A stretch of DNA of 64,000 nt from Myxococcota bacterium (GTDB lineage: Bacteria > Myxococcota_A > Polyangia > Polyangiales > JANWZI01), in contig JANWZI010000006.1 in assembly GCA_025054695.1 (NCBI GenBank), positions 996 to 64,995 of the forward strand, in the 5' to 3' direction. Shown here one piece after another: positions 14,513 through 42,940 of this stretch (positions are counted from its first letter, which is position 1; each line of letters begins with the position of its first letter). The notes below the pieces were generated by a model that worked only from the letters and a program-made list of their open reading frames with translations, did not search any database and was not told the DNA's origin. A program made the position numbers and the translations under genes.

Positions 14513-15654
<1,142 letters not shown>

Positions 15655-28322: not shown

Positions 28323-28406
28323 CCTAGGCCGAGGTCGAGCCGAAGCGCGGGCTGGAGCGTGGGCTCCGCGGGCCCGCCGGGCCCGCACGTCGACCACGGA
28401 CTACGG
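28317..28406. repeat. minimal, degenerate copy of the same element family, E19
   Basis: Convergent gap. CCCTGACCTAGGCCGAGGTCGAGCCGAAG... then ...GCACGTCGACCACGGACTACGG, which resembles the E5 right arm GCAACGTGACCGCCGCTATCCGG. Both flanking stops (28320-28322 and 28401-28403) lie in the arm-like ends. Confidence 0.35.
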
Positions 28407-29108
28407 ACGGGTGCAGCGCACGCCACGCGGGGGCTGCACGCGGAACAGCGCGTCCGTGGCGGATGGGTTCCACTGCATCTCGCTGAAGTCGAACCGGTTG
28501 CGGTTGCCTTCGGCATCGACGATGAGCACGCGGCGTACGACGCCGGCCGCGCGGCCCTGGTGCTCGGGCACGTACAGCAGGATGCGCTCGAAGTGGGGAC
28601 TCGGCTGGAGCGAGCGCAGTTCGAGCACGAATCCTTCGGGATAGCCGTGCCGCACGCGGTCGAGGAGGCGAAACGAGAAGCTTTGCTCGAGGCGGCCGAC
28701 TCCCGTCAGGAACGAGAACGCCGCCGGGAGCTGGTCCTCGTCGACCTCGGTCTCGACGCAGCTCGCGGCCAGGCCGCCGCTGGCCGGCTCCAAGTAGCGC
28801 AGCAGACGGCCGTCGGACGCGATGACCTTGCCGCGGGGCTCGGCGTAGTCCCAACGCATGCGCCCCGGTTTGACGAAGAGCACCGTGCCGTGGGACCGGC
28901 GGTAGCGGTCGTACAGCCGCTCGTAATAGGTCTGATGGAAGCGCGCGCGTACCCCGCGCGTCTGCTCGTAGAAGGACTGGACCGCTGCGGCGACCTGCCG
29001 GGCGTCGGCTGGGGGCGGCTGCGCGAACGTGCCCGGTGTGCGCGTGGCCAGCACGGCGCCCAGCGCGGCGAGGGCCGCGAGCGTCCCGTGCGTGTGTGCC
29101 AATCGCAT
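28401..29108 (-). CDS. lolA: outer-membrane lipoprotein carrier protein LolA
   Basis: ORF track. Signal peptide, then LolA-like FHQTYY..GTVLFVKPGRMRWDY..VIASDG and LELRSLQPSPHFERILLYV. Confidence 0.8.
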   Translation of the reverse strand: MRLAHTHGTLAALAALGAVLATRTPGTFAQPPPADARQVAAAVQSFYEQTRGVRARFHQTYYERLYDRYRRSHGTVLFVKPGRMRWDYAEPRGKVIASDGRLLRYLEPASGGLAASCVETEVDEDQLPAAFSFLTGVGRLEQSFSFRLLDRVRHGYPEGFVLELRSLQPSPHFERILLYVPEHQGRAAGVVRRVLIVDAEGNRNRFDFSEMQWNPSATDALFRVQPPRGVRCTRP

Positions 29109-29140
29109 CGCCCGATGGACGTCGCTCGAGGCCCGGCGAT

Positions 29141-29482
29141 TCAGCCCGCTCGCTCGGCGGCGCGGGCGACGGCCTCGCGCACGAGCGGTTCGAGCTCGCC
29201 GCTCGTGTACATGTCGCGGACGATGTCACAGCCGCCGACGAACTTGCCGCCGACGTACAGCTGCGGATAGGTGGGCCAGTTGCTGAACTCCTTCATGCCT
29301 TCGCGGACCTGGGGGTCGGCGAGCACGTCGACCGCTTCGAAGTCGACGCCGAGGCGACGCAGGACCTCGACGACCGTCGCGCTGAAGCCGCAACGGGGAA
29401 AGTTCTTGGTGCCCTTCATGAACAGCACGATCGGGTGGGCGTCGATGATCGCCTGCATGCGCGTGCGGAACGCATCGTCCAT
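29141..29482 (-). CDS. grxD: monothiol glutaredoxin (Grx4 family)
   Basis: ORF track. CGFS active site (PRCGFS) and WPTYPQLYVGGKFVGGCDI. Confidence 0.92.
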   Translation of the reverse strand: MDDAFRTRMQAIIDAHPIVLFMKGTKNFPRCGFSATVVEVLRRLGVDFEAVDVLADPQVREGMKEFSNWPTYPQLYVGGKFVGGCDIVRDMYTSGELEPLVREAVARAAERAG

Positions 29483-29485
29483 GGC

Positions 29486-29755
29486 TCACTCCTTCGGGGC
29501 CGGCACCTCGTCGGGGGCCCGCGTCTCCAGGGCGAGCGCGTGAACCGGCCCCCGCATCAGCTCGCCGAGCGCATCGTAAACCATGCGGTGCCGCTCGAGG
29601 CGGCTCTTGCCGCGGAAGGCCGCGGCAACCACCGTCGCGCGGAAGTGGTCTCCGCCTCCGGTCAGATCTTCGACGGCGACGTGCACCACGCCCTCGATGC
29701 CGGCACGCAATCGTGCTTCGAGTCCTGCCGCGTCGACCACGATGGCGACGTTCAT
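29486..29755 (-). CDS. bolA: BolA-family protein
   Basis: ORF track. An 89-aa protein with DLTGGGDHF..FRGKSRLERHRMVY, directly upstream of grxD (the classic BolA-Grx pair). Confidence 0.85.
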   Translation of the reverse strand: MNVAIVVDAAGLEARLRAGIEGVVHVAVEDLTGGGDHFRATVVAAAFRGKSRLERHRMVYDALGELMRGPVHALALETRAPDEVPAPKE

Positions 29756-29849
29756 CGCTAGGACGCCGGGCGAGCGGTGTCAATGGGCTCGGTGTGTCGC
29801 GGGTGCGATGCGATGCGTCGGGCGGAGCACCGGCGCGTCTTGGGCGAGG

Positions 29850-30090
29850 TCCACACCGAGTCGAACGATGCTCCCGGCCACCTCGGAGGTCTCTGGGCTC
29901 GGGTTCGGCCGCGGGCCCCCTCTCGGACTCGGCCACGGACTCTGGCTCGGCCTCGGGCTCAGCCTCGGACTCTGTCTCGGACTCGGACCCGGACTCTATC
30001 TCGGACTCGGGCTCCGACTCGGTCTCGGTCTCGGACACGTTCTCGGTCTCGGGGTCCGACTCGGGCTCGACGTCGGCGCGCGTCAAAGAC
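29850..30090. repeat. hexamer-tract inverted-repeat intergenic element, copy E8
   Basis: 24 in-phase SGNCTC units (29925-30068). The right arm-like CGTCGGCGCGCGTCAAAGAC holds the stop of the CCP-fusion gene (30083-30085). The left arm is poorly conserved. Confidence 0.7.
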
Positions 30091-32446
30091 AGAGCAGGAA
30101 CGCGACCAGGTCCGCGATCTGCGCGGCGTCGAGGTCCGAGGTGCGCCCGTGGCGGTCGTCGCGGTTGCGCGTGACGAGCACCTCTTCGAGCGTGGCGGCC
30201 GATCCGTCGTGCAAGTAAGGGGGGGAGTCCCACACGCCGAGCAACGTCGGCGTGTCGAGCCCGTCGAGCGTGCCGCCGAGGCGGCTTCCGGAGCCGACGG
30301 TCAGCGTGCCCACGTCGTGCAGACGCGGCCTCGCCGGCTCGAGCCAGGCACTGTCCGTCATGCGCGGCGGGGTGTGACAGCCCGTGCAGCGCGCCTCGAA
30401 TAGACGCCGGCCGCGCTCGACCTCGGGTCGTTCGACGCCCGGTGGGCAATGGGGACTGGGCACTGGATGTGTAAGCGAGCTCACATATTCCGCGAGGGCG
30501 TCGAGGTCCGCCGACAGGCCGGCTTTCGGGGCGCCCAGGGGCGAGTCACGACCGCCGGATCGGAACAGGGCATCGTCGAGCAGACCCGTGCCCCCGAACG
30601 CTCCGCGGATGTCGTGCTCGAAGTCCTGCACCTCGTCGAAATTGGCCGACCAGTGGATCGGGCCGTGCGCGGTGCCCCCCCCACCCCGCAGATCGATCGT
30701 GTTGCGCAGGCCCTCGCCCCGATCGGTGAAGTACCAGACGCGCCGGTCCGAGGCGCCGTCGAGATGACAGTGGGCGCACGCGATGTATCCGTCGCGCGCG
30801 ATCCGCCGGTCGGCTGCATCGTTGAACAGTCGTTTGCCGCGCAGCAAAGACGGCGAGAGCGGCTCGTGGGAAGCCACGGGAAGCGTCGCGACGGGCGTAG
30901 GGGGCCTGCTCCAGTCGCCCAGCGCAAAGACGACGAGCCGGCGCGACAGGTAGGCATCGACGAACAGCCACCGGTCGTCCTCGGAGACCGCGACGCCCTG
31001 GGGCGCATGGCCCACGTCGAGGATGCTTCCCGACTGCGTCCAGCGCAGCACGTCGAGCCGCTCGACCGCGCGCATGCCGCGATCGACCACGTACAGCTCG
31101 TCGCCGTGCGCGTTGAGCGCGCCGGCGGCCGCAAAGCCCCGATTGTCGAACTGCTTGCGCAGCTCGAAACGCTCCAGGCCCGTGGCGATGTCGAGCACCG
31201 AGACGACCGCGCGCACGGTGGTCTCGAACGTCAACGGTCGGGGCCCACGGAATCGCCCTTCGCGCAGCGACGCTTGCAACGAGGGCACGTAGAGCGTGCG
31301 GCCGTCGGGCGAGACGAGCAGATCGTTGAGGTAGCTCGGGACGCCTCCGATCTCGGTGTCCGATGCGTCCTGAGGGTCGACGCGCAGCCGCCACAGTTCG
31401 CGCCGCCCGTCGGTGGGGTCGACGACGGCGATCTGGGCACCGTCGTCCGGCGAGCGCCAGCGGGCGACCGCGATGCGTCCGTCGGGAAGCAGTGCCAGTC
31501 CGCGGGCGTCTTCGACGGCCGGCAGCGGTGGGTCGAGGCGAGGGGCGCCCTCGTCGGGCAGATGCAGGCGCGCGATGGCGCCCAGCGCTTGCAGGCTCAC
31601 CCACGCCTCGCGCTCGGAGACGGCGAGCACGCCGAACGGCCTCGAGGCGTGCGGTGCGGCGACGTCGATGCGTCGATCGGGCTGTCCGGGCCACAACACG
31701 CTGACCGCGTTACCGTCCTGGCAGGCGACCACGAGACGAGCCCCGACCACGGCCACGGTGCGTGGATCGGCCGCGGTGGGCTGCCGTTCCTCGACTTCGA
31801 ATCGGCCCTCGTCGTCCCAGCGCACGAGGGTGACTTCCGCGCTGTCGGGGCTGACGACCGCGACGCGACGCTGGCCGGGCCAGACGGCGACGGACGAAGA
31901 GCGCGATGGTCGAAACACGGGCCGGTGTGTCACGCTGACGCTCGTCGCGTCGGAGCGGCGGCGCCCAAGCGCGTCCCGTACTTCGAGCACCGCGGTGTAG
32001 CGGCCGGGCGCGCCGTAGCGGTGACGCGCGGTCGGATCCTCGTCGGCTCGAGGCTCCTGGGTCCCATCTCCGAAGCTCCACCGGAAGGAAACGGCACCGC
32101 GTGACCGGCTGCCGTCGAAGACGACATCGTCCCCGACGAACGCGCGCAGCGCAGGCCCGGCCTCGGCCACGAGGGGCTCGATCGCGCCCTCAGCGGCCGT
32201 GCCGTCGAAAGGAGGCTCGTCGACGGCGCCGTCGGACGCGTCGGCGGATCGTCCGGACCCACCGCACGCGGCGAGGACGACGAACCCCAAGCCGAGCGGA
32301 CCGCTCGCCAGACGACGCGGCCGGCCCCGATCCGTCGCGCGCTGCGAGCCCTGCGCGATTCGAGTGGATGTCTCCTCTCCGTCCGCGACGCGTCGTCGCG
32401 TCTCGCAGCCGCGCGATGCGGCTGGAGTCCTGCGAGCTCGCCGCAC
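30083..32446 (-). CDS. lipoprotein: PKD domain plus beta-propeller-like region plus C-terminal di-haem cytochrome c peroxidase/MauG-like domain
   Basis: Lower part of ORF 30083..33742. Lipobox GFVVLAAC/GG, PKD (FDGSRSRGAVSFRWSFGDG...YTAVLEVRD), two CxxCH motifs (CAHCH, CTGCH) and the CCP hallmark TPTLLGVWDSPPYLHDGS. The start is unresolved; GTG 32446 is the only canonical upstream codon (see findings). Confidence 0.75.
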   Translation of the reverse strand: MRRARRTPAASRGCETRRRVADGEETSTRIAQGSQRATDRGRPRRLASGPLGLGFVVLAACGGSGRSADASDGAVDEPPFDGTAAEGAIEPLVAEAGPALRAFVGDDVVFDGSRSRGAVSFRWSFGDGTQEPRADEDPTARHRYGAPGRYTAVLEVRDALGRRRSDATSVSVTHRPVFRPSRSSSVAVWPGQRRVAVVSPDSAEVTLVRWDDEGRFEVEERQPTAADPRTVAVVGARLVVACQDGNAVSVLWPGQPDRRIDVAAPHASRPFGVLAVSEREAWVSLQALGAIARLHLPDEGAPRLDPPLPAVEDARGLALLPDGRIAVARWRSPDDGAQIAVVDPTDGRRELWRLRVDPQDASDTEIGGVPSYLNDLLVSPDGRTLYVPSLQASLREGRFRGPRPLTFETTVRAVVSVLDIATGLERFELRKQFDNRGFAAAGALNAHGDELYVVDRGMRAVERLDVLRWTQSGSILDVGHAPQGVAVSEDDRWLFVDAYLSRRLVVFALGDWSRPPTPVATLPVASHEPLSPSLLRGKRLFNDAADRRIARDGYIACAHCHLDGASDRRVWYFTDRGEGLRNTIDLRGGGGTAHGPIHWSANFDEVQDFEHDIRGAFGGTGLLDDALFRSGGRDSPLGAPKAGLSADLDALAEYVSSLTHPVPSPHCPPGVERPEVERGRRLFEARCTGCHTPPRMTDSAWLEPARPRLHDVGTLTVGSGSRLGGTLDGLDTPTLLGVWDSPPYLHDGSAATLEEVLVTRNRDDRHGRTSDLDAAQIADLVAFLLCL

Positions 32447-32478
32447 GTCATGGGCCGCTGCGAGTGCGTCGGAGCCGT

Positions 32479-34149
32479 TCACGGGCCGGTGCGGAACGTC
32501 GCACGGAAGCCCTCGACCATTCGATTGCCGGACAGATCGGCGACGCCGCCGGCGACGATTTCGAGCGTGTAGGACGTGTTCGGTTCGAGCGGGCAATCGG
32601 GGGTGAAGTTCACGATGGCCTCCTGCGCGGACAACTGTCCCCGGACGCGGCCGGCATCGGGTCCCCGATCCGTGGCCCACAGGCGCACGGAGCCTTCCCA
32701 CACGGTCTCGAAGTCCACGTGCTCGTTGAACGAAACGCCGAAGCGCGAGGTGCTCGGCAAGCCCACGGCACCGTCGGGAGGCCACAGCCAGCTGACGCGC
32801 GGCGGGCTGCGATCGGGCTCGGCCTGATGCGGCACGACCGCGGTGCCGCGATCGGGCTCGGCGTCCGCATCCACGCTCAGCACGACCACGTTGCCGATGG
32901 GAGTCGCCGTATCGAGGTCGCCCGCTAGGGCGTAGCGGGCGACCTCGGTGATGCGGGCCGGATCGCGTACGTCGTAAACCACCGCGAAGCTCGATTCTCC
33001 TTGATACGCGAAGCCCTCCTTGACGAACACGTAGCCGCCATTGCCACCCGACTCGCGCAAACCGGCGAAGCGCGGCGCCCTCGGGTCCCGCACGTCCCAC
33101 ACGAGCAGCCCCCCACCGGCGTCCTTGAGCGCGTAGTAGATGAACCCGTCGGCGAACGTGCTGAAGTAGGCCTCGCGCGGCCGGCCCGTGGCGTCCGTCG
33201 CGAGGAAGTCTCCGCCGGGCATCGGTTGGGGCGCTTCCGGATCGGAGACGTCGAGCAGCAGCGTGCGCGGTCCTTCCGCGGTGGTCGCGATGAGGAGATT
33301 GCCGATCACCTGCACCTGTCCGACGCGCATGATGGGCTCGGGCACGTACGTGGCCACGTGGACCGGCCGACGCGGGTCGGTCGCGTCGATGACGTAGATG
33401 CCGTTGTCGGCCCCGCCTGCGTAGACGAACGGGACCTGCCAGAAGGTACTGAGCGTGACGCGCGCGTAGGCGTCCGGATACGCGAACCCTGGCAACGCGA
33501 GGTGCGACGCTTCGGTCGGCTGCGTCGGGTCCGAGAGGTCCCAGAACTGCACGCCGCCTCGGAACGGAAACCGGCTCGTGTCGATGCCGTCGACCACCGC
33601 CCACAGGCCCCCGAGCCGCGAAAAGCCGATGGCGTGCGTCTCGCGCGTGCGTTCGGAGTAGCCGTAGCCGACGCGGCGCGGCGCGCACGGATCGCGCACG
33701 TCGTACAGCGAAATGCCGCCGCCGCCCCATTCCGGCGCCCACGGCATCACGAGGTAGCCGCCGAGCATCGTGACGAGGTTGTGGTGGTCGCTGACGTCGC
33801 CCTCGCCGCCGTCGATGTACGCGCAGTGCGTGCCGAGCTCATGGGGCTCGAAGCGACGGGCTGGCCCGCCGGGGCCTCCGAGCCTGGGATGCGCGTCCGG
33901 CGCCGGGTAGGGGCCGAGAGCGGGGGCGTCGGGTCGGCAACGGTTCACCCGCATCGGGGGTACCTCGTCGCTCGGTCCATCGGCCGCGGCGGCGTCGACG
34001 TCGGGGCGCCCGTCGGGGCTCGCATCGGGCGTCGCGGCATCACGTCGTTCGGAGCTCGGTCCACAGCCGAGGATCCCCCCGAGCCCGAGCAGCAGCCTGC
34101 ACACCGCGCACGTCCATGCCGGGACGATCGCGGCGAGGCGGCGGCGCAT
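32479..34149 (-). CDS. LVIVD-repeat beta-propeller lipoprotein with a C-terminal Ig-like (Big_5/SbsA-type) domain
   Basis: ORF 32479..34224 trimmed to MRRRLAAIV...LLLGLGGILGC/G (lipobox). Repeated xxxxDVxDP units (ISLYDVRDP, VQFWDLSDP, IYVIDATDP, LLLDVSDP, LLVWDVRDP, AVVYDVRDP). The C-terminus VSWLWPPDGAVGLP...NTSYTLEIVAGGVADLSGN is Ig-like. Confidence 0.8.
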   Translation of the reverse strand: MRRRLAAIVPAWTCAVCRLLLGLGGILGCGPSSERRDAATPDASPDGRPDVDAAAADGPSDEVPPMRVNRCRPDAPALGPYPAPDAHPRLGGPGGPARRFEPHELGTHCAYIDGGEGDVSDHHNLVTMLGGYLVMPWAPEWGGGGISLYDVRDPCAPRRVGYGYSERTRETHAIGFSRLGGLWAVVDGIDTSRFPFRGGVQFWDLSDPTQPTEASHLALPGFAYPDAYARVTLSTFWQVPFVYAGGADNGIYVIDATDPRRPVHVATYVPEPIMRVGQVQVIGNLLIATTAEGPRTLLLDVSDPEAPQPMPGGDFLATDATGRPREAYFSTFADGFIYYALKDAGGGLLVWDVRDPRAPRFAGLRESGGNGGYVFVKEGFAYQGESSFAVVYDVRDPARITEVARYALAGDLDTATPIGNVVVLSVDADAEPDRGTAVVPHQAEPDRSPPRVSWLWPPDGAVGLPSTSRFGVSFNEHVDFETVWEGSVRLWATDRGPDAGRVRGQLSAQEAIVNFTPDCPLEPNTSYTLEIVAGGVADLSGNRMVEGFRATFRTGP

Positions 34150-34325
34150 CTTTATTCGCGCGGACGTGGGGGCCATCGGCGCTCGAATCGTACCGCGCGC
34201 GGCGCTCCGGGCGCACATGGCCACGGATGCGGTTCGTCGACCAGTGCCTGCGCGCGGGTCGGTCGTTCGATCGGGGACGCACCAAGGCGTGCGGCGCGCT
34301 AGGATGCGGAGCCGTGCGAACCTCG

Positions 34326-37313
34326 ATGAAATGGCACCCCTTGCTGTGGCTCGTGCTGGTGGTCGGTTGTGACTGCGGGGACGGAACGACCCCTTCGGAC
34401 GCGGGCCCGGCGGACGTTCCGGTCACCGACCGGCCAGCCGTCGACGTGACGGGCGAACAGCCCGAAGAACCGGACGGGGGCGGACCGTGCGTCCGGGTTC
34501 GGACGCTCGGGGCCGACGGCCGGCGCGCGTCGCCCGACGGCATCGGCGGCAGCGGGGACCTCGAGATCGTCAACGGCGTGCTTCGCGCGGTCATCGCCGC
34601 CCCTGCACGCACCGCCCACTACGCGGCAAGCGGAGGCACGCTCGTCGATCTGCACCTGCTCGGTGAAGGCGACTCGCTCAACGAGCTGTCCCAGCTCGGC
34701 AGCCCCGCACAGGCCTCGCAGGTGCGCTACACGGAGCTCGAGGTCGTCGAGCAAAGCGAGATGCGCGCGATCGTGGAGGTGCGCGGGCACGTGCAGCTCG
34801 CGCCTCGTCCGCCCGGTGGCACCGATCCCATCTCGCCGCATCCGGGAACGAATCTCGCCGTGACGACCCGCTATGAGGTGCGCTGTGGCGAGCGCGTCGT
34901 GCACCTCGAAAGCACGCTGACGAACGCCAGCACAACCGAGGTCTATTCGGGCACCGCCCTGCGCGTGCTCGACCTGATGCTGTGGGGTGGACGCTCGCTG
35001 CAGCCGTTTTGCCCGGTCGCGGGGCAGGGCGACCGGTGCCGGCCGTTCGACTTCTCCAATCCACTCGCGAGCCTGGTGCGTTCGCCGTACATCGGCTCGA
35101 CGGGTAGCGTGGCGGGGCCGCCGGCCTCGTTCGCGTTCTACCCGGAGGATCCGACAGCGGGGCCGTTCGTCGGCGTGCACTCGTCGCAGGTCTCCACGTT
35201 CGGCCACTTCGAGCCCGGCGTGGACTACCTGTTCATGGGCGAGTCGCGCACCTATCGGCGTGCCATTGCGGTCGGCGGGCGGGCGGACGGGGCCTCGTCG
35301 ATCGACGTCGCGCTCGAGGCGCTCGCGGCGCAGGGACGGCTGCAAATCGCCACCGTGACGGGGCGCGTCGCTCCGGCGCCCGCGGTCGGAGGAAGGCGGC
35401 CGCTGCCCGAGCACCTCTGGCCGATGGTGTTGCTCGCGACGCCTGCCGCCGAGGGGGACCCGCTCGACCCGGCGCGCTGGACGCCCATCACGATCGCGCG
35501 CGTCGGTTCCGACGGTCGCTTCACGGCGCGCGTCATTGCCGGACGAATCGGCTGGGAGCTGCGCGCGCCCGGTCGCCCGGCGCGGCGTGGCGATGGGGGA
35601 AGCGTCGAGCCCGGTGGGACGCTGGACCTCGGAGTCCTCGACGTGCCCGAGCTGCCCGTCGTCTCGGTCAGCGTCCGCGAGCGGACCGCGAGCGGCCCGG
35701 TCGGCTTGCCGGCGCGCGTGACGGTGGTCGGCGTCGACGGGACGCCGACGCCGCAGCTCGGTCCCGACGGCGGACCGTCGCCGTCGCTCAACCTCGCGCT
35801 CACCGACGGGTTCGGCGAGCTCGAGCTGCGCTTGCCGGAGGGCCGGTACGACGTCTATGCGACGCACGGCCAGCGCTACACGGTCGCGCGCAGGCGCATC
35901 GACGTCGGCGCGGCGGGCGGCAGCGTCGAACTGGAGCTCGTGCGCCTCGACGTCGTCCCGCCGGACATGCTGACGGCGGACTTCCACGTGCACGGCGCGG
36001 CGAGCTTCGACAGTTCCCTTCCCGACCGCGACCGATTGCTGAGCTATCTGGCGGAGGGCGTCGACGTCGTCGTTTCGACCGAGCACGACGTCGTGCACGA
36101 CTACGCCGACGCGCTCGCGGCGCTCGAGGCCGAGCTTCCCCCCACGCGTCGCGGAGCGTTGCGCGCCTTCGTGGGCGTCGAGGTCACCAACTCCGTTCCG
36201 CACGGGGCGTTCCCGAACACCATCGGCCACTACAACGCCTATCCGCTCGCGGTGGTCAGCGGCGCGCGCGCCGGCGGCGCCCCCGACGACGAATACGTCG
36301 AGCCGGGCGCGCTGTACGACCGGATCCGAGCCCTCGTCGGCCCGGCAGGCACGCCGCTCGTGCAGCTCAACCACGGCCGCTCGATTCGCGCGGGCGTGGT
36401 CTGGCTCGGTTACTTCGATTCGTGCGGGTTCGACCCGACCGAGGCCATCGTCGCGGCGCATCCGTGTTGGTCTGGCGTATCCGCGGCGGGCACGCGGCCG
36501 TGGGACATCGACGCGATGGAGGTGCTCAACGGCGTCGCCGACGCGACGTACATCAACAACCTGCGCGATTGGCTCGCGGTGCTCCGTCAAGCGCCCGGCG
36601 GGCGGCTTCCCGTGGCCACGGCCAACAGCGACAGCCACCGCCTCGTCTTCGACCAGGCAGGCATGCCCGTCACGGTGTTGCGCGTCCCCGAAGGCTTGGC
36701 GGGGCTGACGGCCACGCGATTGCGCGATGCGCTGGGCTCGGGCGCGGTCGCGGGGATGGCCGGACCGTTCGTTTGGGCGCGCGCGCGCGAGGTGGGCTCT
36801 TCAGCCTCGCCGGTGGAACCCGGACGTACGGTGCTTCGCGCGCCGAGCGGGCGCGTCGAGCTGGCGCTGAGCGTGCACGCGGCCCCATGGATTCCCGTCG
36901 ACGAGATCCGCGTTCGGTGGAATGGGGAGGTCGTCGTGCGCATCGGGCGTGCGATGCTCGCGCACCCGACCGACCCCTTTGGGACCGAGGGCGTGGTGCG
37001 CTTCGAACGCACGGTCGCGCTCCCGGCCGTCGGCTCGGATGGATTCATCGTCGCCGAAGCGGGGTTCGCGCTGGGTCCCGTCGCGGACGTGGACGGAGAC
37101 GGCGTCGCGGATGCGACCGACCGCGATGGCGACGGAGACATCGACGCCGAGGACGCGAGGCTCGGCGGCATCGACCTCGGAGCGGTGCCCGAGCCGCTCG
37201 GAACGCTGTTCCCCTCGGCGCGTCCCGTCGGCTTCACCAATCCCATCTTCGTCGACGTCGACGGAGACGGCGACTACGACCCACCGAACAGCCCGCTTCC
37301 GCCGGAGGTCTGA
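34326..37313 (+). CDS. large lipoprotein with a PHP/CehA-McbA-like metallohydrolase domain and C-terminal Asp-rich Ca-binding-like repeats
   Basis: Inner ATG of ORF 34116..37313 gives MKWHPLLWLVLVVGC/DCG (lipobox). Motifs are DFHVHGAASFDS...VVVSTEHD and the C-terminal DVDGDGVADATDRDGDGDIDAED...VDVDGDGDYD. The stop TGA 37311-37313 lies in the E9 arm. Confidence 0.75.
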   Translation: MKWHPLLWLVLVVGCDCGDGTTPSDAGPADVPVTDRPAVDVTGEQPEEPDGGGPCVRVRTLGADGRRASPDGIGGSGDLEIVNGVLRAVIAAPARTAHYAASGGTLVDLHLLGEGDSLNELSQLGSPAQASQVRYTELEVVEQSEMRAIVEVRGHVQLAPRPPGGTDPISPHPGTNLAVTTRYEVRCGERVVHLESTLTNASTTEVYSGTALRVLDLMLWGGRSLQPFCPVAGQGDRCRPFDFSNPLASLVRSPYIGSTGSVAGPPASFAFYPEDPTAGPFVGVHSSQVSTFGHFEPGVDYLFMGESRTYRRAIAVGGRADGASSIDVALEALAAQGRLQIATVTGRVAPAPAVGGRRPLPEHLWPMVLLATPAAEGDPLDPARWTPITIARVGSDGRFTARVIAGRIGWELRAPGRPARRGDGGSVEPGGTLDLGVLDVPELPVVSVSVRERTASGPVGLPARVTVVGVDGTPTPQLGPDGGPSPSLNLALTDGFGELELRLPEGRYDVYATHGQRYTVARRRIDVGAAGGSVELELVRLDVVPPDMLTADFHVHGAASFDSSLPDRDRLLSYLAEGVDVVVSTEHDVVHDYADALAALEAELPPTRRGALRAFVGVEVTNSVPHGAFPNTIGHYNAYPLAVVSGARAGGAPDDEYVEPGALYDRIRALVGPAGTPLVQLNHGRSIRAGVVWLGYFDSCGFDPTEAIVAAHPCWSGVSAAGTRPWDIDAMEVLNGVADATYINNLRDWLAVLRQAPGGRLPVATANSDSHRLVFDQAGMPVTVLRVPEGLAGLTATRLRDALGSGAVAGMAGPFVWARAREVGSSASPVEPGRTVLRAPSGRVELALSVHAAPWIPVDEIRVRWNGEVVVRIGRAMLAHPTDPFGTEGVVRFERTVALPAVGSDGFIVAEAGFALGPVADVDGDGVADATDRDGDGDIDAEDARLGGIDLGAVPEPLGTLFPSARPVGFTNPIFVDVDGDGDYDPPNSPLPPEV

Positions 37314-37595
37314 AGGCGGCGGTCACGTCGTTCGATCGCGCATCGGTCGTAGCCTGCTCGCGGGCTGGGGCTTCGTGTCGGACTCGGTCTCGGACTCGGT
37401 CTCGGACTCGGATTCGGTCTCGGACTCGGACTCGGACTCGGGTTCGGAGCCGGAGTCAGGCTCGGGCTAGGACTCGGACTCAGGCTCCGACTCTGGCTCC
37501 GACGCGGACTCCGGCTCGGTCTCGGTCTCAGTCTCGGTCTCGGACCCCGAGGACTGCGTGGCGAGCTCGTTCGAACCGACCGGCGTGCACAGACC
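37308..37595. repeat. hexamer-tract inverted-repeat intergenic element, copy E9
   Basis: The left arm GTCTGAAGGCGGCGGTCACGTCGTTCGA (37308-37335) holds the TGA at 37311-37313. Then GTCGTAGCC, 28 in-phase GNCTCG units (37375-37542), module-like CCGAGGACTGCGTGGCGAG, and right arm CTCGTTCGAACCGACCGGCGTGCACAGAC. Confidence 0.9.
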
Positions 37596-37610
37596 CCGCT
37601 CGGCGTATGG

Positions 37611-38192
37611 CTACGGCGCAGTGCGCTGCATCGCCACCAGCCGTTCGACCCCACGCGTGATCTGCTCGCGTTCGGCCATGGAAAAGCCTTCCCGTTCGCG
37701 CACGACGAGCCCGTTTCGGTCGATCCAGATGCTGAACGGAGCGGCGCGCCTCGGGTTGAGGCGGGTCGTCACGGAGGTGTCCAGGTCGCTCAAGACTGGA
37801 AACGTCAGACCCATCCGTCGGGCCATGGGCCCCGCGCCACCGATGCTCGAGGCGTCGTCCATCGAAATCGCGACGACGACGAGCCCGCGCCCACGCAACC
37901 GTTCGTAGAGGCGTTGATAGAGCGGGAGCTCCTGCCGACACGGCGCGCACCACGTCGCCCAGAACAGGATGACCACGGGACGTCGACCCAGGTGCTCGGC
38001 GAGCGAGAAACGCCCCTGCGTCGGCCCCCCGGGCACCGCGGGCAACGTGAACGTCGCGGGACGCGCGCCGACGCGCGCGCGCGCCGTTCCCGTGGCGACG
38101 GCCGCCGCGCACACCGTCGCCATCGACAGGGCCGCGGCGGCGACGAAGCAACGGGTCGCGCTACGTCGGGCGATGACTCGCATGGGTCGCAT
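37611..38192 (-). CDS. TlpA/ResA-like thiol:disulfide oxidoreductase (thioredoxin fold)
   Basis: ORF 37611..38789 trimmed to MRPMRVIARR... (signal peptide). Active site FWATWCAPC. Confidence 0.85.
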   Translation of the reverse strand: MRPMRVIARRSATRCFVAAAALSMATVCAAAVATGTARARVGARPATFTLPAVPGGPTQGRFSLAEHLGRRPVVILFWATWCAPCRQELPLYQRLYERLRGRGLVVVAISMDDASSIGGAGPMARRMGLTFPVLSDLDTSVTTRLNPRRAAPFSIWIDRNGLVVREREGFSMAEREQITRGVERLVAMQRTAP

Positions 38193-38212
38193 CGAGCCTG
38201 ACCCGCGCGCCT

Positions 38213-40015
38213 CTAGATGCGCAAGACGGCCTCGAGCTCCACGCCTTCGAATGCCGGCACGTCCCGGCACACGCCGTTGGAGCACAGCCTTGTGGCCGGC
38301 GTCCGCCCTGCGAACAGGCGCAGGGTGTGCCGACCATCGCCCAGTTGCCAGCGCGCTTCGAGGCCGGGGTACAGATTGCGGCCCGCGGTGAGCGGACCGA
38401 GCCGAAGGCCCGGCACGTCGCGCTCGGTGTTCCACAGCAGCATGGGAGCGACGGACAGATCGGTGTCGGCATTCGCGTAGCTGATCGTGAGGCCGCCACG
38501 GCGCCATGGCGCGAGCCGCCCGCGGACGTCGCGGCGGCGTTCCTCGCGGTGCTCGAGGCGGATTTCCAGCGCGTGGATGCCCGACGAGAGGCCGAAGTCC
38601 ACCGTACCGTGGACGGTGCTCCATTCGAGATCCCCGGAACCCACGCCTGGATAGGGGGATTGCTCGAGGAACACATGCCGCCGGACGCCGGCGACGACGG
38701 TGAGCGACCAGTCGGTCTCGGCTCCGATCGCGCGCCGTTCGATCTCGAGCCATCCGTGCCCTACCGCGCGCGCCCTCGAGCCCGTCCACGGGTCCTCGCG
38801 GGCGTCGGGAGAGTGACCGTAGCCGGCTAGGCCCGCCGTCGCGCTCCAGGGACCTGGCTCGAAGCCGTGCCCCACGCGCAGGGCCGCCCCGCGCGCGTTG
38901 CTCGCGTCTTCCATGACCTCGCCCGTGCGATCGAGCACGGGGGCGGTCCCGTAGGTGCGCCGGGGCGGCGCGCCGTCAGGCGCGAGTAGGAACGCTCGCA
39001 AATCTTGTACATCGACCTGGACGCTCGTCGGCCCCGCCGACCAGACGACCTGCGCGAGGGCGGCGCGACCCCAGCGCCGTCGGTGCAGGCCGAGGCGACG
39101 CTGCACGTGGTCGAGCCGCATCGCGTCGGCCTCGAGATGAACCGCGATCGAGCCGTCGAACAGCGATGGCGCCGTCATCCGCCAGCCGAGCACCCAGCCG
39201 TCCGCGGTGATCGCGCTCTCGGGGTCCTCGTCGAACCAGGCGCGGACCGCGTGCGCGGCGAGCTCGATGTCTCGATGCGCGCCGAGGCGGCCGCCGCCCT
39301 CCGCGACGAGCAGCACGTCGCGCCCGTCGGGCACGACGGCCATGTCCTCGAGCCGATCGACGTTCTGCGGATTGACGGCGCCGCCGACGGGGAGCAGCAG
39401 GGTGCCGGCCGGACCTCGGGCGTCGCGGAGCGCAGGAATCGCGAATAGGCCCCCGGCGAGCTGTCCGAACAGCCGTCCGTCGTCGTGTCCCACGCGCAAT
39501 CCGCGGTGGCTCGTGTCGACGCCGAGCGTGTCGATTCTCGTCAACGACAGCGCGATGCCGCGGCCGAGCGCGAGCGTGCCGTCTCCGAGCTCGACGAGCC
39601 ACGGCTCCGATCGCCACTGCACGCTGAGCCGCTCGAGCCGGAAGTCGGGACGGATCCGGCAGGTGGGCTCGAGCCCTTCGGGGCACGGCTGGCGCCAGGA
39701 CGCCCCGTCACGCACGAAGAGAGGAAGCAGGGCGTCGAGACGCAGCGAAACCGAGACCCGATCGCCCTGCGCGAGCATCTCGAGGCGCTCGACGCCGACG
39801 AGCACGCGGTCGTCGTGCTCGTGCACGTCCAGGTCGTCGCCGCGCCACTGAAGAAGCGAACTGCTCGTCGCGCTGAGGCTGGTCGGCCCGAGCAACGGCA
39901 GACGAGGTGGCGCGTCGGGCTCTTCGCCTGGACCGGCCGTCCCTCCGGCGTCGGACGATTGGGCCGCGACCGGCGCGCCAATCGCGACGGCCAGTAGCCA
40001 TGCGGCGCAGCTCAC
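38213..40015 (-). CDS. hypothetical secreted protein, probable large outer-membrane beta-barrel
   Basis: ORF 38213..40753 trimmed; its upstream part is only a translation of the E10 repeat tract (PSPSPSPKPS...). GTG 40015 gives VSCAAWLLAVAIGAPVAAQ/SS. The body is beta-rich with Gly/aromatic alternation. The start is uncertain. Confidence 0.55.
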   Translation of the reverse strand: MSCAAWLLAVAIGAPVAAQSSDAGGTAGPGEEPDAPPRLPLLGPTSLSATSSSLLQWRGDDLDVHEHDDRVLVGVERLEMLAQGDRVSVSLRLDALLPLFVRDGASWRQPCPEGLEPTCRIRPDFRLERLSVQWRSEPWLVELGDGTLALGRGIALSLTRIDTLGVDTSHRGLRVGHDDGRLFGQLAGGLFAIPALRDARGPAGTLLLPVGGAVNPQNVDRLEDMAVVPDGRDVLLVAEGGGRLGAHRDIELAAHAVRAWFDEDPESAITADGWVLGWRMTAPSLFDGSIAVHLEADAMRLDHVQRRLGLHRRRWGRAALAQVVWSAGPTSVQVDVQDLRAFLLAPDGAPPRRTYGTAPVLDRTGEVMEDASNARGAALRVGHGFEPGPWSATAGLAGYGHSPDAREDPWTGSRARAVGHGWLEIERRAIGAETDWSLTVVAGVRRHVFLEQSPYPGVGSGDLEWSTVHGTVDFGLSSGIHALEIRLEHREERRRDVRGRLAPWRRGGLTISYANADTDLSVAPMLLWNTERDVPGLRLGPLTAGRNLYPGLEARWQLGDGRHTLRLFAGRTPATRLCSNGVCRDVPAFEGVELEAVLRI

Positions 40016-40019
40016 GGAG

Positions 40020-40335
40020 GCAGACAGGTTACTCGATCGCGGTCTCGGCTTCGGACTCGGCTTCGGACTCGGACTCGGACTCGGACTCGGTCTCCGACTC
40101 GGTCTCGGACTCGGTCTTGGGCTCGGTCTCCGACTCGGACTCGGTCTCCGACTCGGTCTCGGACTCGGTCTTGGGCTCGGTCTCCGACTCGGACTCGGAC
40201 TCGCTCTCGGTCTCGGACTCAGGCTCCGCCTCGGTCCCGGCTCGGCCTCGGGTTCGGAACCGGATGCCGGCCCGGCCGCGAAAACGCGCCTCGGCGCCGT
40301 CCACGAAAGTGGCCGGCGCCGTCGGGTGCGACTTA
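40020..40335. repeat. hexamer-tract inverted-repeat intergenic element, copy E10 (longest tract)
   Basis: 33 in-phase SGNCTC units (40041-40238), including an exact 54-nt duplication (40089-40142 = 40143-40196). The right arm CGCCTCGGCGCCGTCCACGAAAGTGGCCGGCGCCGTCGGGTGC ends at the stop of the 40333 gene. The left arm is weak (CAGACAGGTTACTCGA). Confidence 0.8.
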
Positions 40336-40998
40336 CGACGAAAGCAGGCGGTCCAGGGCGGCCTGGAGCGTCACGAGCCCTTCGCTCGCTCCGTTCTCGC
40401 GGAACTGGATGATGCCCTCGTGGTCGACGATGATGGTCGCCGGCAGCGAGTTGCCCGGGAAATAGATCTGCGTGCGTTGCTCGGGGTCGATGAGCTCGAT
40501 GTTCGTCAATCCGAACGTCTCGACCCAGCGGCGGCACAGCGCGAGATCGGGGGGGCCGTACTCGGCGTCCTGCACCAAGATCTGGATGACCCGCACGCCG
40601 CGGGACCGATAGGGCTCGGTGATGCGCGCCGTCAGGCTCCGGCTCTCCTCGCGGCACGGCCCGCACCACTCGGCCGCGATGTTGATCACGGTCAGCCGTG
40701 TGGCCGGGTCGCACCAATGCTCGTTGTAGAAGGCGTAGGGGGTTCCATCGCACTGCTGCAGCTCGAACGGTCGCAGCCTGCGGCCGAGGCTGGTTCCGTA
40801 GGGCTCGGGCGGTGCCATGCAGCGAGGCGGCGAGGCGTCCACCGACGTGCCCGCATCGAGATCCAAGCCGGCTGCATCCCCGGGCCCGGCGCCCGCGTTG
40901 GTCACGCCGTCACCCCCGTCGTCGCGCCGGCCGTCACAGGCCGTCAGGCCGACGAGCAGGACGATCCCGATTCCTCGAGCCACGCGCGATGTTGCCAT
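40333..40998 (-). CDS. thioredoxin-like (TlpA/redoxin) lipoprotein
   Basis: ORF 40333..41064 trimmed to MATSRVARGIGIVLLVGLTAC/DG (lipobox). Active site AAEWCGPC. The stop TTA lies at 40333-40335, next to the E10 arm. Confidence 0.8.
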   Translation of the reverse strand: MATSRVARGIGIVLLVGLTACDGRRDDGGDGVTNAGAGPGDAAGLDLDAGTSVDASPPRCMAPPEPYGTSLGRRLRPFELQQCDGTPYAFYNEHWCDPATRLTVINIAAEWCGPCREESRSLTARITEPYRSRGVRVIQILVQDAEYGPPDLALCRRWVETFGLTNIELIDPEQRTQIYFPGNSLPATIIVDHEGIIQFRENGASEGLVTLQAALDRLLSS

Positions 40999-41036
40999 GA
41001 CGAAGCACGAATGTAGCGCGGTGGCGACGCGCAGCG

Positions 41037-41948
41037 CTAGCCGAACAGGCCGATGGGGACGCACACGCCGTTTTCGTAGCGCGCGGTGCCGCCCGGCAGC
41101 CGGAAGCTGCGGACGCAGACGTACCCGTCGCTACTTCTGCAATCCTCGTCGACGGCGCACTCCCGCAAACAGACGCCGAGGTCGCCCTCGGCGAACGTCC
41201 CGTTCACGAAGCAGACGTTGCCTTCCGGGCAGCTGGCGCGAGGTAGCCGCTCGCCCGCGAACAACGTGTTCGTGTTGTATCCGGCCGGCAGGATGCAGGG
41301 CCCGACGCAATAGCCGCCGAGCCACCGCGGGGCCATCGCGCGCTGTTCGATGCAGAGCTGAGACAAGCAATCCGCATCACCTCGGCACGGCTCTCCGTGA
41401 CGGCCGCCCTCGGTGGGAACCGTTCCGGCGGCCATGCAGCGGCCGCTCCAGACGTTGCACTGCGCTCCCCCACCACATTCGTCGTCCGATGCGCACACCC
41501 CGATGCAAAAACCCGAGCCCGCGGCGACCTCGTCGACGCCCGCGCACGTGTACCCGCGGCGGCCGCAGTCGAGGCCGTTCAGGCAGCGGTACTCGCAAAA
41601 GTCGCCTTCGGGGCGCCGCAGGCAGTGATGATAGGTGATGCCATCGTCGCAGGGAGTCCGATCCGGTGCCGCGCACGGTACGGTGCACTGTCCCTGCGGG
41701 TAGCCGTCCTGCGGCTTGCGGCAGAACGCGCCCTCGCCGGGACACTGCGAATCGTCGAGGCACGGGCCGAAAATCGTGCTCGGCGGCAGCCCCGCATCGT
41801 GGCCCGCGTCGACGCCGGCATCGGTGGCGCCGACGTCATGGCCGGCGTCCTCGAAGCGACGGCCCGCGTCGCGCCCCTTGCACGACGTGGTGGCCAGAAC
41901 GGAACCCCACAGCACGAGGGTGGCCAGCCGGCGGTCGGGTGTGCGCAT
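41037..41948 (-). CDS. cysteine-rich repeat lipoprotein
   Basis: ORF track. Lipobox LATTSC/KG. Many paired Cys residues in repeated modules (DDSQCPGEGAFC, ASDDECGGGAQC, RGDADCLSQLC, AVDEDCRSSDGYVCV). Confidence 0.7.
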   Translation of the reverse strand: MRTPDRRLATLVLWGSVLATTSCKGRDAGRRFEDAGHDVGATDAGVDAGHDAGLPPSTIFGPCLDDSQCPGEGAFCRKPQDGYPQGQCTVPCAAPDRTPCDDGITYHHCLRRPEGDFCEYRCLNGLDCGRRGYTCAGVDEVAAGSGFCIGVCASDDECGGGAQCNVWSGRCMAAGTVPTEGGRHGEPCRGDADCLSQLCIEQRAMAPRWLGGYCVGPCILPAGYNTNTLFAGERLPRASCPEGNVCFVNGTFAEGDLGVCLRECAVDEDCRSSDGYVCVRSFRLPGGTARYENGVCVPIGLFG

Positions 41949-41967
41949 GGGATGCCCATCATCTCAC

Positions 41968-42170
41968 ACCGACCGTCGGCTTGCTCGCCTGCCGCTCGAG
42001 CTCCGGATCGGCCCCGGACCCGGTCTCAGCCCAAGACGCTGGCACCGTCTTCCTCTCCGTCTCGGTCTCGGTCTCGGACTCGGACTCGGGATCGGGTCCG
42101 ACGTCGGTCTCGGGCACGGAGTCGGGAAACTGCCAGGCGACATCGACCAAAACGACAGCCGCCGTCGGTC
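41968..42170. repeat. probable copy of the same element family, E11 (in a divergent promoter region)
   Basis: Tract GTCTCGGTCTCGGTCTCGGACTCGGACTCGGGATCGGGTCCGACGTCGGTCTCGGG (about 42058-42113). Right arm-like CATCGACCAAAACGACAGCCGCCGTCGGTC. The left arm is weak. Confidence 0.55.
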
Positions 42171-42244
42171 GCCGTCGCGCGCACGCGTCGCGTGCCGGGA
42201 ACGAGGCGCGTCGATCGCGCGATGAAACGTGCGTGCGCCCGACC

Positions 42245-42928
42245 ATGCTGCTCTGCGCGATCGCCGATCTGGTCGCCCCGCGCCGCTGCTGCGCCTGCGA
42301 CGCCGTGCTCCCGGCCGGCTCGTCGACCTGGTGCGCCGCCTGCGAGACGGCGTGCGAGCCGGCCCCCCCGTCGGCGCTTCCTCCGGCCCCGCACGCGGCC
42401 GTGTTCCAGTACGGCGGCGCGATGGCGATTGCGCTTCGCCGCTACAAGTACGCAGGTCGCTCCGAGCTGGCCCGGCCCCTGGGGAACCTGCTCGCCGCGG
42501 CCGCACCCGCGTACGGCGACCTCGTCGATGCCGTGGTGCCCGTCCCCCCGCATCCGTCGCGGCTGCGCGAGCGCGGATTCGACCCGGTGGCGCTGCTTTC
42601 GGCTCCGCTCGCGCGCGCCCTCGGCGTGCCGCACCGACTCGAGGCGCTCCGACGCGTTCGACCGACCCCTCCGCAGGCCGGGCTCGATGCGCGGGCGCGC
42701 GCGGCCAACGTGCGAGGGGCGTTCGTCGCTGCGTCGAAGCGACCGTTGCCCCGGGCGGTGCTGCTCGTCGACGACGTGCGGACGACGGGGGCGACCCTCG
42801 CGGAGTGCACGCGCGTGCTGCGCGACGCGGGCGTCGGATCCGTCTATTCCGTCACGCTCGCGATGGCCACGGGCGATTCCGACGACGACGCGCGGGACGC
42901 GTTCGCGGGGAACGCGGCGTCGTGGTAG
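42245..42928 (+). CDS. comF: ComF-family phosphoribosyltransferase-domain protein
   Basis: Inner ATG of ORF 41666..42928. N-terminal CxxC..CxxC (RRCCACDAVL...WCAACE) and PRTase motif VLLVDDVRTTGATL. Confidence 0.8.
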   Translation: MLLCAIADLVAPRRCCACDAVLPAGSSTWCAACETACEPAPPSALPPAPHAAVFQYGGAMAIALRRYKYAGRSELARPLGNLLAAAAPAYGDLVDAVVPVPPHPSRLRERGFDPVALLSAPLARALGVPHRLEALRRVRPTPPQAGLDARARAANVRGAFVAASKRPLPRAVLLVDDVRTTGATLAECTRVLRDAGVGSVYSVTLAMATGDSDDDARDAFAGNAASW

Positions 42929-42940
42929 GGGCTTGGCGAC

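Follow-up and report, generated by a model that had tools for sequence, protein, structure and literature searches.

A propeller lipoprotein and its propeller-dihaem cytochrome c neighbour form a widely conserved pair in a seven-gene region of a Myxococcota bacterium

We analysed a window of 64,000 nucleotides from a Myxococcota bacterium (assembly GCA_025054695.1, contig JANWZI010000006.1, positions 996 to 64,995 of the forward strand; "the window" means this whole stretch, and coordinates refer to it). Seven consecutive genes at 30083-41948, named A to G here in order of position, were found to form three independent units (B-A, C and G-F-E-D) rather than one 12-kb machine. B encodes a lipoprotein with an LVIVD-type beta-propeller and an Ig-like Big_5 domain, and A a lipoprotein in which a PKD domain and a further propeller precede a dihaem cytochrome c domain. 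B and A are a genuine functional pair and the two halves of one enzyme. Within this three-unit arrangement, B-A is probably a single, split extracellular haem oxidoreductase acting on glycan-rich material, for which we infer the haem ligation, the cellular side, the substrate and the reaction. The organisational result, namely the pairing of the two genes and their fused and split forms, is solid, and the links to hydrazine synthase and to carbohydrate binding are suggestive.

The window has a G+C content of 71% and raw lists of its open reading frames (ORFs) are full of spurious frames; genes were called by third-position G+C periodicity. The calls were checked by motif mapping, by inspection of start codons and by comparison with the NCBI calls on JAVQYH010000003.1, a contig of the Myxococcota metagenome-assembled genome (MAG) GCA_033577305.1; this contig is 99.87% identical to the window, and the same seven genes are called on it. 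An earlier interpretation of this DNA, made from its letters alone (the sequence-only reading), had listed seven consecutive genes, and all of them are present where it had placed them (Table 1). Its motifs were found with the same exactness, comprising the haem motifs CAHCH and CTGCH of A, TPTLLGVWDSPPYLHDGS (30200-30253), WCAPC of D (37938-37952) and WCGPC of F (40654-40668). The translations also agree with its statement that every product carries a signal peptide or a lipobox: lipoboxes were read in A (LAAC), B (ILGC), C (VVGC), F (LTAC) and G (TTSC), and D and E have hydrophobic leaders. A single co-directional block is not what the strands show. D, E, F and G lie on the minus strand, convergent with C, and B-A, C and G-F-E-D occupy alternating strands (B and C divergent, C and D convergent), so that the region must comprise at least three transcription units. 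Pfam and NCBIfam profile searches were run on the window proteins and the scores were compared with curated cut-offs; the domains that the sequence-only reading had assigned hold at the level of superfamilies, with several family scores falling below the cut-offs.

Conservation of the B-A pair

Twenty relatives of A were aligned and the alignment was used to scan a one-genome-per-species collection. At least 589 loci encode a relative of A (among 600 pattern matches listed), and the best 80 of these at least 589 loci were kept with 10-kb flanks. They belong to Myxococcota, Verrucomicrobiota, Planctomycetota, Bacteroidota, Gamma- and Betaproteobacteria, Fibrobacteres, KSB1, Chloroflexota, Binatia and other groups. 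Neighbourhoods were compared by tblastn of the seven window proteins and of two downstream genes against the 80 loci. B was found in 69 of them; in 67, across at least ten phyla, it immediately precedes A on the same strand. Six of the 11 loci without B end at a contig edge just upstream of A. C was found in two loci and D in one, and E, F, G, the glutaredoxin Grx and LolA in none. The neighbourhood is therefore conserved for the pair of LVIVD and dihaem-fusion genes that the sequence-only reading had pointed out, and not for the 12-kb block that it had treated as a unit. The same reading had called the arrangement unusual. It is indeed uncharacterised, but with at least 589 loci, each species being represented by one genome, it is not rare.

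The pair exists in two forms. B and A were counted as fused when, after inspection of the junction, they were in the same frame without a stop, and by this test 33 loci are fused and 34 are split. A count by ORF span had given 36 fused loci and was discarded as inflated, since long spurious high-G+C ORFs cover both genes. The 33 fused loci come from Verrucomicrobiota, Planctomycetota, Bacteroidota, Gammaproteobacteria, Fibrobacteres, KSB1, Chloroflexota, Binatia and some Polyangia, their junction is direct (…FSTGSGGG-PKD…), and fused proteins of 1001-1254 aa are also present in the protein database (P0095, P0106, P0118). Split loci are mostly from Myxococcota, in which A has a lipobox of its own. 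Between the window protein and its counterparts in Vibrio, Aquimarina and Verrucomicrobiota, the dihaem domain is 51-57% identical. In most other phyla the enzyme is one exported polypeptide consisting of a signal peptide, the LVIVD propeller, Big_5, PKD, the 7-bladed propeller and the dihaem domain, and in the Myxococcota lineage the gene would have been split past Big_5, each half bearing its own lipoprotein signal. With a lipoprotein signal on each, both halves of the window enzyme would be anchored in a membrane on its non-cytoplasmic side.

The start of A is ambiguous (32267-32482, minus strand). The statement of the sequence-only reading that A begins 32 nt past B corresponds to its choice of GTG 32446; the alternative GTG 32482, chosen by NCBI, overlaps the stop of B by 4 nt, as is also the case in Sandaracinus amylolyticus. 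Such an overlapping stop and start (GTGA) would permit translational coupling of B and A. In the 20 codons that precede the lipobox Cys of A, the window has no ATG, GTG or TTG, and either start gives a leader of 60-72 aa; relatives of A have a short lipoprotein signal (MRR…LAAC).

All-versus-all clustering of the ORFs of the 80 loci yielded no third conserved gene, only generic families (ABC transporter, kinases, SDR). One candidate partner was rejected: a 733-aa DUF5916 protein is encoded 27 nt past B-A in S. amylolyticus (L081 12244-14445, CP011125) and is absent from all other loci examined. In two MAGs (L031 6376-7230, Thermodesulfobacteriota; L034 6052-6903, Verrucomicrobiales) the frame stays open beyond the dihaem domain and takes in an FAA_hydrolase-family domain. 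Such an extension is odd for an exported protein and may be either a read-through or a true fusion.

These neighbourhoods also bear on the view that the whole set of seven works as a single redox machine of the envelope, in which TlpA-like proteins keep cysteines or haem-attachment sites reduced. The seven products are exported and adjacent, the best NCBIfam match of D is ResA (3e-19), and redoxins of the TlpA/ResA/CcmG type reduce the CxxCH cysteines of apocytochromes. This model is largely refuted by synteny: D lies near the pair in a single locus and E, F and G in none, none of the five other genes occurs near the closest relatives of A (L002 and L005, 54-57% identity), D and F are kept beside DUF6029 genes on unrelated contigs, at times fused to them, and the strands require three transcription units or more. 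We consider it very improbable.

Dihaem domain and proposed role of the B-A unit

With regard to A, Pfam matches were obtained to PKD_4 (7.6e-13), RoxA-like_Cyt-c (1.8e-7; 31 bits, cut-off 26.7) and Cytochrom_C (1.2e-5). CCP_MauG (PF03150), the cytochrome c peroxidase (CCP)/MauG family, reaches 20.2 bits with a cut-off of 25.6, and many relatives do have a precomputed PF03150 match; the dihaem peroxidase family NF040606 gives 41.6 bits against a cut-off of 150. The best NCBIfam match is hydrazine_gamma. When a profile of A was compared with all PDB sequences, the gamma subunit of hydrazine synthase came out on top (5c2v_C, 1.1e-33); next came a Methanosarcina S-layer protein with a YVTN propeller and PKD, then dihaem peroxidases, and hydrazine synthase beta matched weakly. 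For the dihaem domain taken separately, a profile drawn from six phyla likewise ranked 5c2v_C first (1.5e-32, 116 bits), with 70 bits for the best peroxidase, 53 for the "Di-heme enzyme" 6e1c and about 24 for MauG chains, in which no aligned stretch passes the threshold alone. In the AlphaFold model of A, the PKD domain and the propeller (residues 90-540) have pLDDT values above 90, and a Foldseek search of the whole PDB with this model gave hydrazine synthase beta as the best match (5c2v_B, E 1.6e-12, TMt 0.72). Since the propeller is nearest to beta by fold and the dihaem domain nearest to gamma by profile, A has a beta-gamma architecture. The label "CCP/MauG-like" given by the sequence-only reading is right for the superfamily and for the two CxxCH motifs, but too coarse, as the domain is nearer to hydrazine synthase gamma, lacks the peroxidase Met ligand and scores low with MauG. 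B-A is an architectural variant inside the CCP/MauG/hydrazine-synthase-gamma superfamily and belongs to a large uncharacterised family.

Both CxxCH motifs are invariant in the 20 relatives of A and in 14 sequences from several phyla. The counterparts of CAHCH in the alignments are the haem gamma-I motif in 5c2v_C and, in peroxidases, the motif of the peroxidatic haem; CTGCH falls on the second haem motif in both 5c2v_C and the dihaem peroxidases. The invariant Trp599 likely corresponds to the Trp that lies between the haems in dihaem peroxidases and in MauG. We take this from its spacing and from general knowledge of peroxidase sequences; the Trp599 segment gave no HMMER alignment to any peroxidase. 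In the alignment to 3o5c, the position of the peroxidase Met ligand (…AVNTM…) is occupied by Arg or Lys in the A family, and the invariant His766 follows six residues on. This residue is probably the sixth ligand of haem 2, which would then be a bis-His haem.

An ordinary periplasmic dihaem cytochrome c peroxidase with decorative domains, removing H2O2 with electrons from periplasmic cytochromes, would account for the superfamily, for the two CxxCH motifs and for a conserved Trp at peroxidase spacing, and the lipoprotein anchors fit the periplasmic face. It would account less well for the Arg or Lys at the Met-ligand position and the invariant His of hydrazine-synthase type found instead, for the sub-threshold CCP_MauG and NF040606 scores, and for two conserved propellers with invariant polar residues. 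Moreover, the carbohydrate-binding modules (CBMs) and type IX secretion tails of orthologues place these outside the cell, away from periplasmic donors. Overall, we judge a periplasmic peroxidase unlikely.

In B, LVIVD (PF08309) reaches 18.2 bits with a cut-off of 20.2; orthologues exceed it (L001, 30.8 bits; L054, 25.2 bits), and PF08309 is present in most of the 120 listed relatives of B, which also have PF13205. The AlphaFold model of B is all-beta (mean pLDDT 86), with a confident propeller plus Ig domain. A sequence search of B against the PDB gave no match. The best Foldseek matches are 7-bladed propeller enzymes, namely Sb-PTE (5hrm) and galactose oxidase, which also has an Ig domain, at a TM-score of about 0.4. 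Across 64 loci, residues E170, H172, W203, D204, Q238, Y243, Y328, Y373 and D411 are kept; this polar and aromatic set fits a binding or catalytic site and not a mere spacer.

The conserved residues of B also raise the question of a protein-modifying role for A. A MauG- or MbnH-like enzyme could have B as its client, with the dihaem centre oxidising Tyr, Trp or His residues of B to a cofactor or metal site and the propeller being the real catalyst. Dihaem enzymes encoded beside their protein substrates are known (MauG with preMADH, MbnH with MbnP), the pairing or fusion of A with B is obligatory, H172, Y328, Y373 and W203 of B are invariant, and the fold matches of B include galactose oxidase, which has a protein-derived cofactor, and a metallo-phosphotriesterase. 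These fold matches are weak, and MauG scores low on the dihaem profile. The MauG and MbnH family models TIGR03791 and TIGR04039 remain far under their cut-offs, haem 2 is apparently His/His and not the His/Tyr haem that stabilises bis-Fe(IV) in MauG, and a permanent 1:1 fusion would be unusual for a maturation enzyme. We regard such a role as quite unlikely.

The role that we favour, extracellular oxidation at glycan-rich material, is drawn from the orthologues. All fused forms begin with signal peptides, and 35 orthologues extend past the dihaem domain, with extensions that include Big_7, CBM_3, CBM_5_12_2, CBM_6, CBM_35, NPCBM, PA14/GLEYA, CHB_HEX_C_1, Sde0182_C and Por_Secre_tail (type IX secretion). 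The Photobacterium orthologue has three NPCBM domains, that of Vibrio penaeicida PA14 and two NPCBM domains, that of a shipworm-associated Alteromonadaceae bacterium CBM_5_12_2 and CBM_6, and that of Aquimarina CBM_3, Sde0182_C, three PKD domains and a type IX secretion tail. A fused orthologue of 2352 aa from Aquimarina sp. 2304DJ70-9 (L075 1-19583) lies in a co-directional run of type-IX-secreted cellulases, a setting also noted for L064 and L072. Its neighbours in L075 are GH9-CBM3-GH48, a GH5 cellulase and a DUF5060/GH115_C/CBM6/CBM96 protein, each of which ends in a type IX tail. GH48 is encoded nearby in two more loci, and the gene lies beside secreted cellulases in three Aquimarina species. 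As secreted proteins are out of reach of periplasmic cytochromes, an oxidant-driven extracellular reaction is more plausible than housekeeping peroxide removal, and the glycan-binding modules, the type IX tails and the Aquimarina cellulases make glycan-linked oxidative chemistry the likeliest role.

As a separate observation, the V. penaeicida gene adjoins sugar-catabolism genes, an SMP-30/gluconolactonase gene (L078 13783-14757) overlapping the 3' end of the orthologue, and in Rhizobacter sp. SG703 a PQQ-type glucose/sorbosone dehydrogenase (GSDH) with an NPCBM domain is encoded downstream of the orthologue (L033 about 12601-15144). Both neighbours hint at sugar-lactone chemistry nearby. A GSDH-NPCBM fusion to the unit (L033:8566-15144) was rejected, as the GSDH-NPCBM protein is in another frame and is a downstream neighbour.

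In the mechanism that we propose, haem 1 (CAHCH), which would be five-coordinate, would activate a small oxidant such as H2O2 or O2, and haem 2 (CTGCH with His766, bis-His) would relay electrons. The two propellers and the Ig-like domains could hold a bulky extracellular substrate, and oxidative chemistry would take place on, or at, glycan-rich extracellular material.

Several points weigh against this proposal. The haem domain of A is poorly modelled, with pLDDT below 50 across much of residues 555-736. Recognisable glycan-binding modules occur in only about one third of the C-terminal extensions, carbohydrate-active neighbours are confined to a few genera and absent at most loci, and A and B of the window carry no carbohydrate-binding module. 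The lipoprotein anchors of the Myxococcota proteins could equally well place them in the periplasm. Pfam assignments for the two closest genes on either flank of the fused loci returned 140 families in 99 ORFs, none of them recurrent beyond single genera. Fission in Myxococcota is suggested by distribution only, the genes being fused nearly everywhere and split in one phylum. Finally, a literature search returned no paper on this architecture and none that combines LVIVD with cytochrome c peroxidase; searches on CBM/peroxidase/propeller and on GH48/GH9/cytochrome c found nothing relevant.

A more specific possibility is that the B-A unit represents an unrecognised class of secreted, haem-dependent auxiliary enzymes for polysaccharide or lignocellulose breakdown, corresponding in aerobes, outside the cell, to the beta-gamma scaffold of hydrazine synthase. 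The five-coordinate haem would then generate a reactive oxygen intermediate, to be used on polymer held by the propellers and carbohydrate-binding modules. CBM3, CBM5/12, CBM6, CBM35 or NPCBM are present in the versions from shipworm symbionts, Aquimarina, Vibrionaceae, Fibrobacteres and Verrucomicrobiota. We put this idea forward as speculative and rather unlikely in this specific form.

The B-A family is large (at least 589 loci in the one-genome-per-species collection), spread over many phyla and strongly conserved, and no study of it was found. It links the origin of hydrazine synthase with the extracellular redox enzymology of biomass breakdown, two fields unconnected so far. If its reaction is found, this would provide a new haem-based activity on extracellular polymers and show the role of the hydrazine synthase scaffold before anammox. 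With regard to annotation, the Myxococcota products named "PKD domain-containing protein" and "Ig-like domain-containing protein" each represent half of a single enzyme.

Gene C, the G-F-E-D operon and the repeat arrays

Gene C matches NF038032 (CehA_McbA_metalo) with an E-value of 2.9e-22 and 79.5 bits, the cut-off being 80, over profile positions 4-298 of 315, and carries three C-terminal DxDGDG motifs. This agrees with the PHP/CehA-like core and the Asp-rich repeats that had been proposed for it. Searches of Pfam and of PDB sequences gave no match to C, a putative stand-alone CehA/McbA-like hydrolase lipoprotein outside the B-A unit.

The remaining four genes are a separate conserved operon or module, with G first and D last. 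D and F had been described as exported TlpA- or thioredoxin-like proteins, and their motifs WCAPC and WCGPC and redoxin-family matches above cut-off bear this out: D matches AhpC-TSA (1.5e-17) and the ResA subfamily (3e-19), F matches AhpC-TSA (3.9e-8) and Redoxin (1.1e-7), and both exceed the AhpC-TSA/Redoxin cut-offs without reaching the equivalog cut-offs of ResA, TlpA or DsbE. E has no direct Pfam or NCBIfam match. A word-indexed search finds E alone, and an exhaustive search finds 213 relatives. DUF6029 (PF19494) is matched by 22 of 23 sampled HMMER relatives, down to 23% identity (best E 2.2e-19), and an N-terminal AhpC-TSA/Redoxin domain is fused in four of 23 DUF6029 relatives. The DUF6029 relatives of E have signal peptides, a C-terminal ending of the form ...E.V.R[LFIY] and alternating hydrophobic residues, resembling outer-membrane proteins, and DUF6029 is similar to the Wzi barrel by HHpred (PMC9603273). 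E is a probable outer-membrane beta-barrel.

On other contigs, a redoxin gene like F lies directly upstream of DUF6029 genes and a gene like D follows. The orders redoxin-DUF6029 and redoxin-DUF6029-redoxin recur on unrelated contigs, including the contig of P0244, and F-E-D repeats the latter; no member of this module has been studied. A metagenome contig of 3.3 kb (L083) keeps the full G-F-E-D order, with identities of 47% (G, over 80 aa), 68%, 43% and 80%. The sequence-only reading had assigned the TlpA-like proteins to the service of the cytochrome. This is not supported, as the redoxins belong with DUF6029, beside which their order recurs and to which they are fused in four of 23 relatives, and nothing ties them to A. 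G is the Cys-rich lipoprotein that had been described, with 29 Cys in 303 aa and the lipobox TTSC. It has no Pfam or NCBIfam match, and a metagenome pattern scan found no relatives. It is a reasonable guess that the redoxins handle G at or across the barrel. In annotation terms, the TlpA-like genes next to B-A belong to a separate, uncharacterised DUF6029-barrel module, and the proximity of genes for exported products in genomes of this size is no evidence of shared function.

The window contains nine intergenic arrays of 6-nt units (CTCGGA / CGAGTC family, 12-28 copies), and the unit contains GAGTC. The array just 3' of A is 84 nt (14 units) shorter than in the 99.87%-identical assembly, which is the sole length difference over 17.4 kb, and the arrays are therefore length-polymorphic. 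The array between F and E had been considered as a gene for an acidic Glu/Ser/Thr-repeat peptide on account of its high third-position G+C; it was rejected, as it has no start codon and no NCBI gene and a 6-nt repeat itself gives a 3-nt periodicity. Downstream of A (28401-29755, minus strand) lie BolA, monothiol glutaredoxin (Grx4-type) and LolA genes, which are unrelated to B-A. BolA and Grx are a known Fe-S-related pair.

Table 1. Genes, domains, residues and repeat arrays of the region, with window coordinates
Feature	Position	Residues	Strand	Description or basis
Gene A	30083-32446 or 32482		-	lipoprotein, PKD + propeller + dihaem cytochrome c
A, lipobox LAAC		Cys61 (787-aa numbering)	-	read from translation
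A, PKD domain	31943-32170	93-168	-	PKD_4 match
A, beta-propeller	30872-31924	about 175-525	-	AlphaFold model, Foldseek
A, dihaem cytochrome c domain	30083-30871	526-787	-	profile matches
A, haem motif 1 CAHCH	30764-30778	C557, C560, H561	-	presumed catalytic haem
A, haem motif 2 CTGCH	30374-30388	C687, C690, H691	-	presumed electron-transfer haem
A, invariant Trp	30650-30652	Trp599, 38 residues past His561	-	conserved in both alignments (20 relatives; 14 sequences)
A, invariant His in D-x-H-G-x-T-S	30149-30151	His766	-	common to hydrazine synthase gamma (MHGRTS)
Gene B	32479-34149		-	lipoprotein, LVIVD-type propeller + Big_5
B, lipobox ILGC		Cys29	-	read from translation
B, LVIVD-type beta-propeller	32815-33852	about 100-445	-	profile, relatives, model
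B, Big_5 Ig-like domain	32488-32814	446-554	-	Big_5 5.2e-17
Gene C	34326-37313		+	995-aa lipoprotein, CehA/McbA-type metallohydrolase
C, metallohydrolase domain, CehA/McbA-type (PHP-like)	35973-37061	550-912	+	NF038032
Gene D	37611-38192		-	TlpA/ResA-like thiol-disulfide oxidoreductase, WCAPC
Gene E	38213-40015		-	600 aa, probable DUF6029-family protein, putative outer-membrane beta-barrel
Gene F	40333-40998		-	thioredoxin-fold lipoprotein, WCGPC
Gene G	41037-41948		-	303-aa Cys-rich lipoprotein
(CTCGGA)n array	29922-30069			just 3' of gene A, marks end of B-A transcription unit; TRF
(TCGGAC)n array	37378-37545			between convergent C and D; TRF
Hexamer array	40040-40251			between F and E, inside G-F-E-D operon; TRF; no NCBI gene
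Further arrays	7990-8101, 17377-17485, 43753-43876, 45447-45607, 46762-46940, 62338-62411			TRF

Comparison with known systems

Hydrazine synthase (Kuenenia stuttgartiensis, 5c2v; fused beta-gamma in Scalindua) resembles A in that a 7-bladed propeller is followed by a dihaem CCP-like domain. Its gamma subunit and A have a C-terminal motif in common, DTPTL...Y(F/L)HDG...HG(x)TS, which includes the probable bis-His ligand; haem gamma-II of hydrazine synthase is a bis-His, low-potential haem (PMC12607021). Identity between the two is low, with NF052341 at 54.7 bits (cut-off 625) and NF052342 at 39.7 (cut-off 1250). The A family lacks the third thioether Cys (gammaCys165), its sole invariant Cys being the four of the CxxCH motifs, and has Trp599 at the expected inter-haem position of gammaHis144. 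Non-anammox relatives of the hydrazine synthase beta-gamma module have recently been searched for (PMC12758564). That paper describes many non-anammox beta-gamma-like fusions without an assigned function, and homologues with Trp in place of gammaHis144 that were judged non-functional for hydrazine synthesis. LVIVD, PKD and carbohydrate-binding modules receive no mention in the parts of its main text that were consulted. B-A differs further in the added N-terminal PKD domain and the whole LVIVD propeller and Big_5 module.

Hydrazine-synthase-like nitrogen chemistry, with NO or hydroxylamine reduced at haem 1 and the product passed to a second site, could be read from the best solved relatives, which are hydrazine synthase beta for the propeller and gamma for the dihaem domain. 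It is nonetheless highly unlikely in view of the NF052341 score, the missing third thioether Cys, the Trp shared with homologues judged non-functional, and the lack of an adjacent alpha-subunit homologue. No alpha-subunit candidate was found, as there is no further CxxCH ORF at 29000-43000 of the window, no haem motif in B and no conserved third gene in the 80 loci. The host bacteria are aerobes that degrade polymers, and the ligands of the accessory domains are glycans; B-A proteins are exported, either to the envelope or out of the cell, in aerobic heterotrophs, with no sign of nitrogen chemistry.

The dihaem peroxidases (Shewanella CcpA, 3o5c; Nitrosomonas, 1iqc) share with A two c-type haems in a CCP fold, the PTLRN...PYxHDG region and probably the inter-haem Trp, placed by spacing in A. 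In contrast to them, A lacks the Met ligand of the electron-transfer haem, its domain is fused to PKD and a propeller, and its orthologues are secreted, beyond the reach of periplasmic electron donors. MauG, MbnH and BthA likewise have a dihaem CCP-like fold and are encoded beside a partner protein, which in the present family may be fused. The scores of A are 29.2 bits for TIGR03791 (cut-off 443.85) and 21.6 for TIGR04039 (cut-off 362.85), no equivalent of the Tyr ligand of MauG was identifiable, and there are no mau or mbn genes (mauA/B, mbnP) among the neighbours in the window or the 80 loci. The Methanosarcina surface-layer protein 1l0q combines PKD with a 7-bladed YVTN propeller, as does A (profile E 1.9e-17; second Foldseek match), but in reversed domain order and without a haem domain, being a structural S-layer protein.

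The rubber oxygenases RoxA and RoxB (4b2n), secreted dihaem dioxygenases that cleave a polymer, belong to the same superfamily as A, only the RoxA-like_Cyt-c sub-domain (33-39 residues) matching. A scores 18 bits with RoxB (NF050034) and 22 bits with RoxC (NF051462), the cut-off being 900 for each. RoxA has no propellers, and the accessory domains of the A family point to glycans and not to rubber. RoxA is an extracellular dihaem enzyme that acts on an insoluble polymer without an external electron donor, and its second haem is bis-His. RoxA serves as the functional analogy for the proposed role of the B-A unit.

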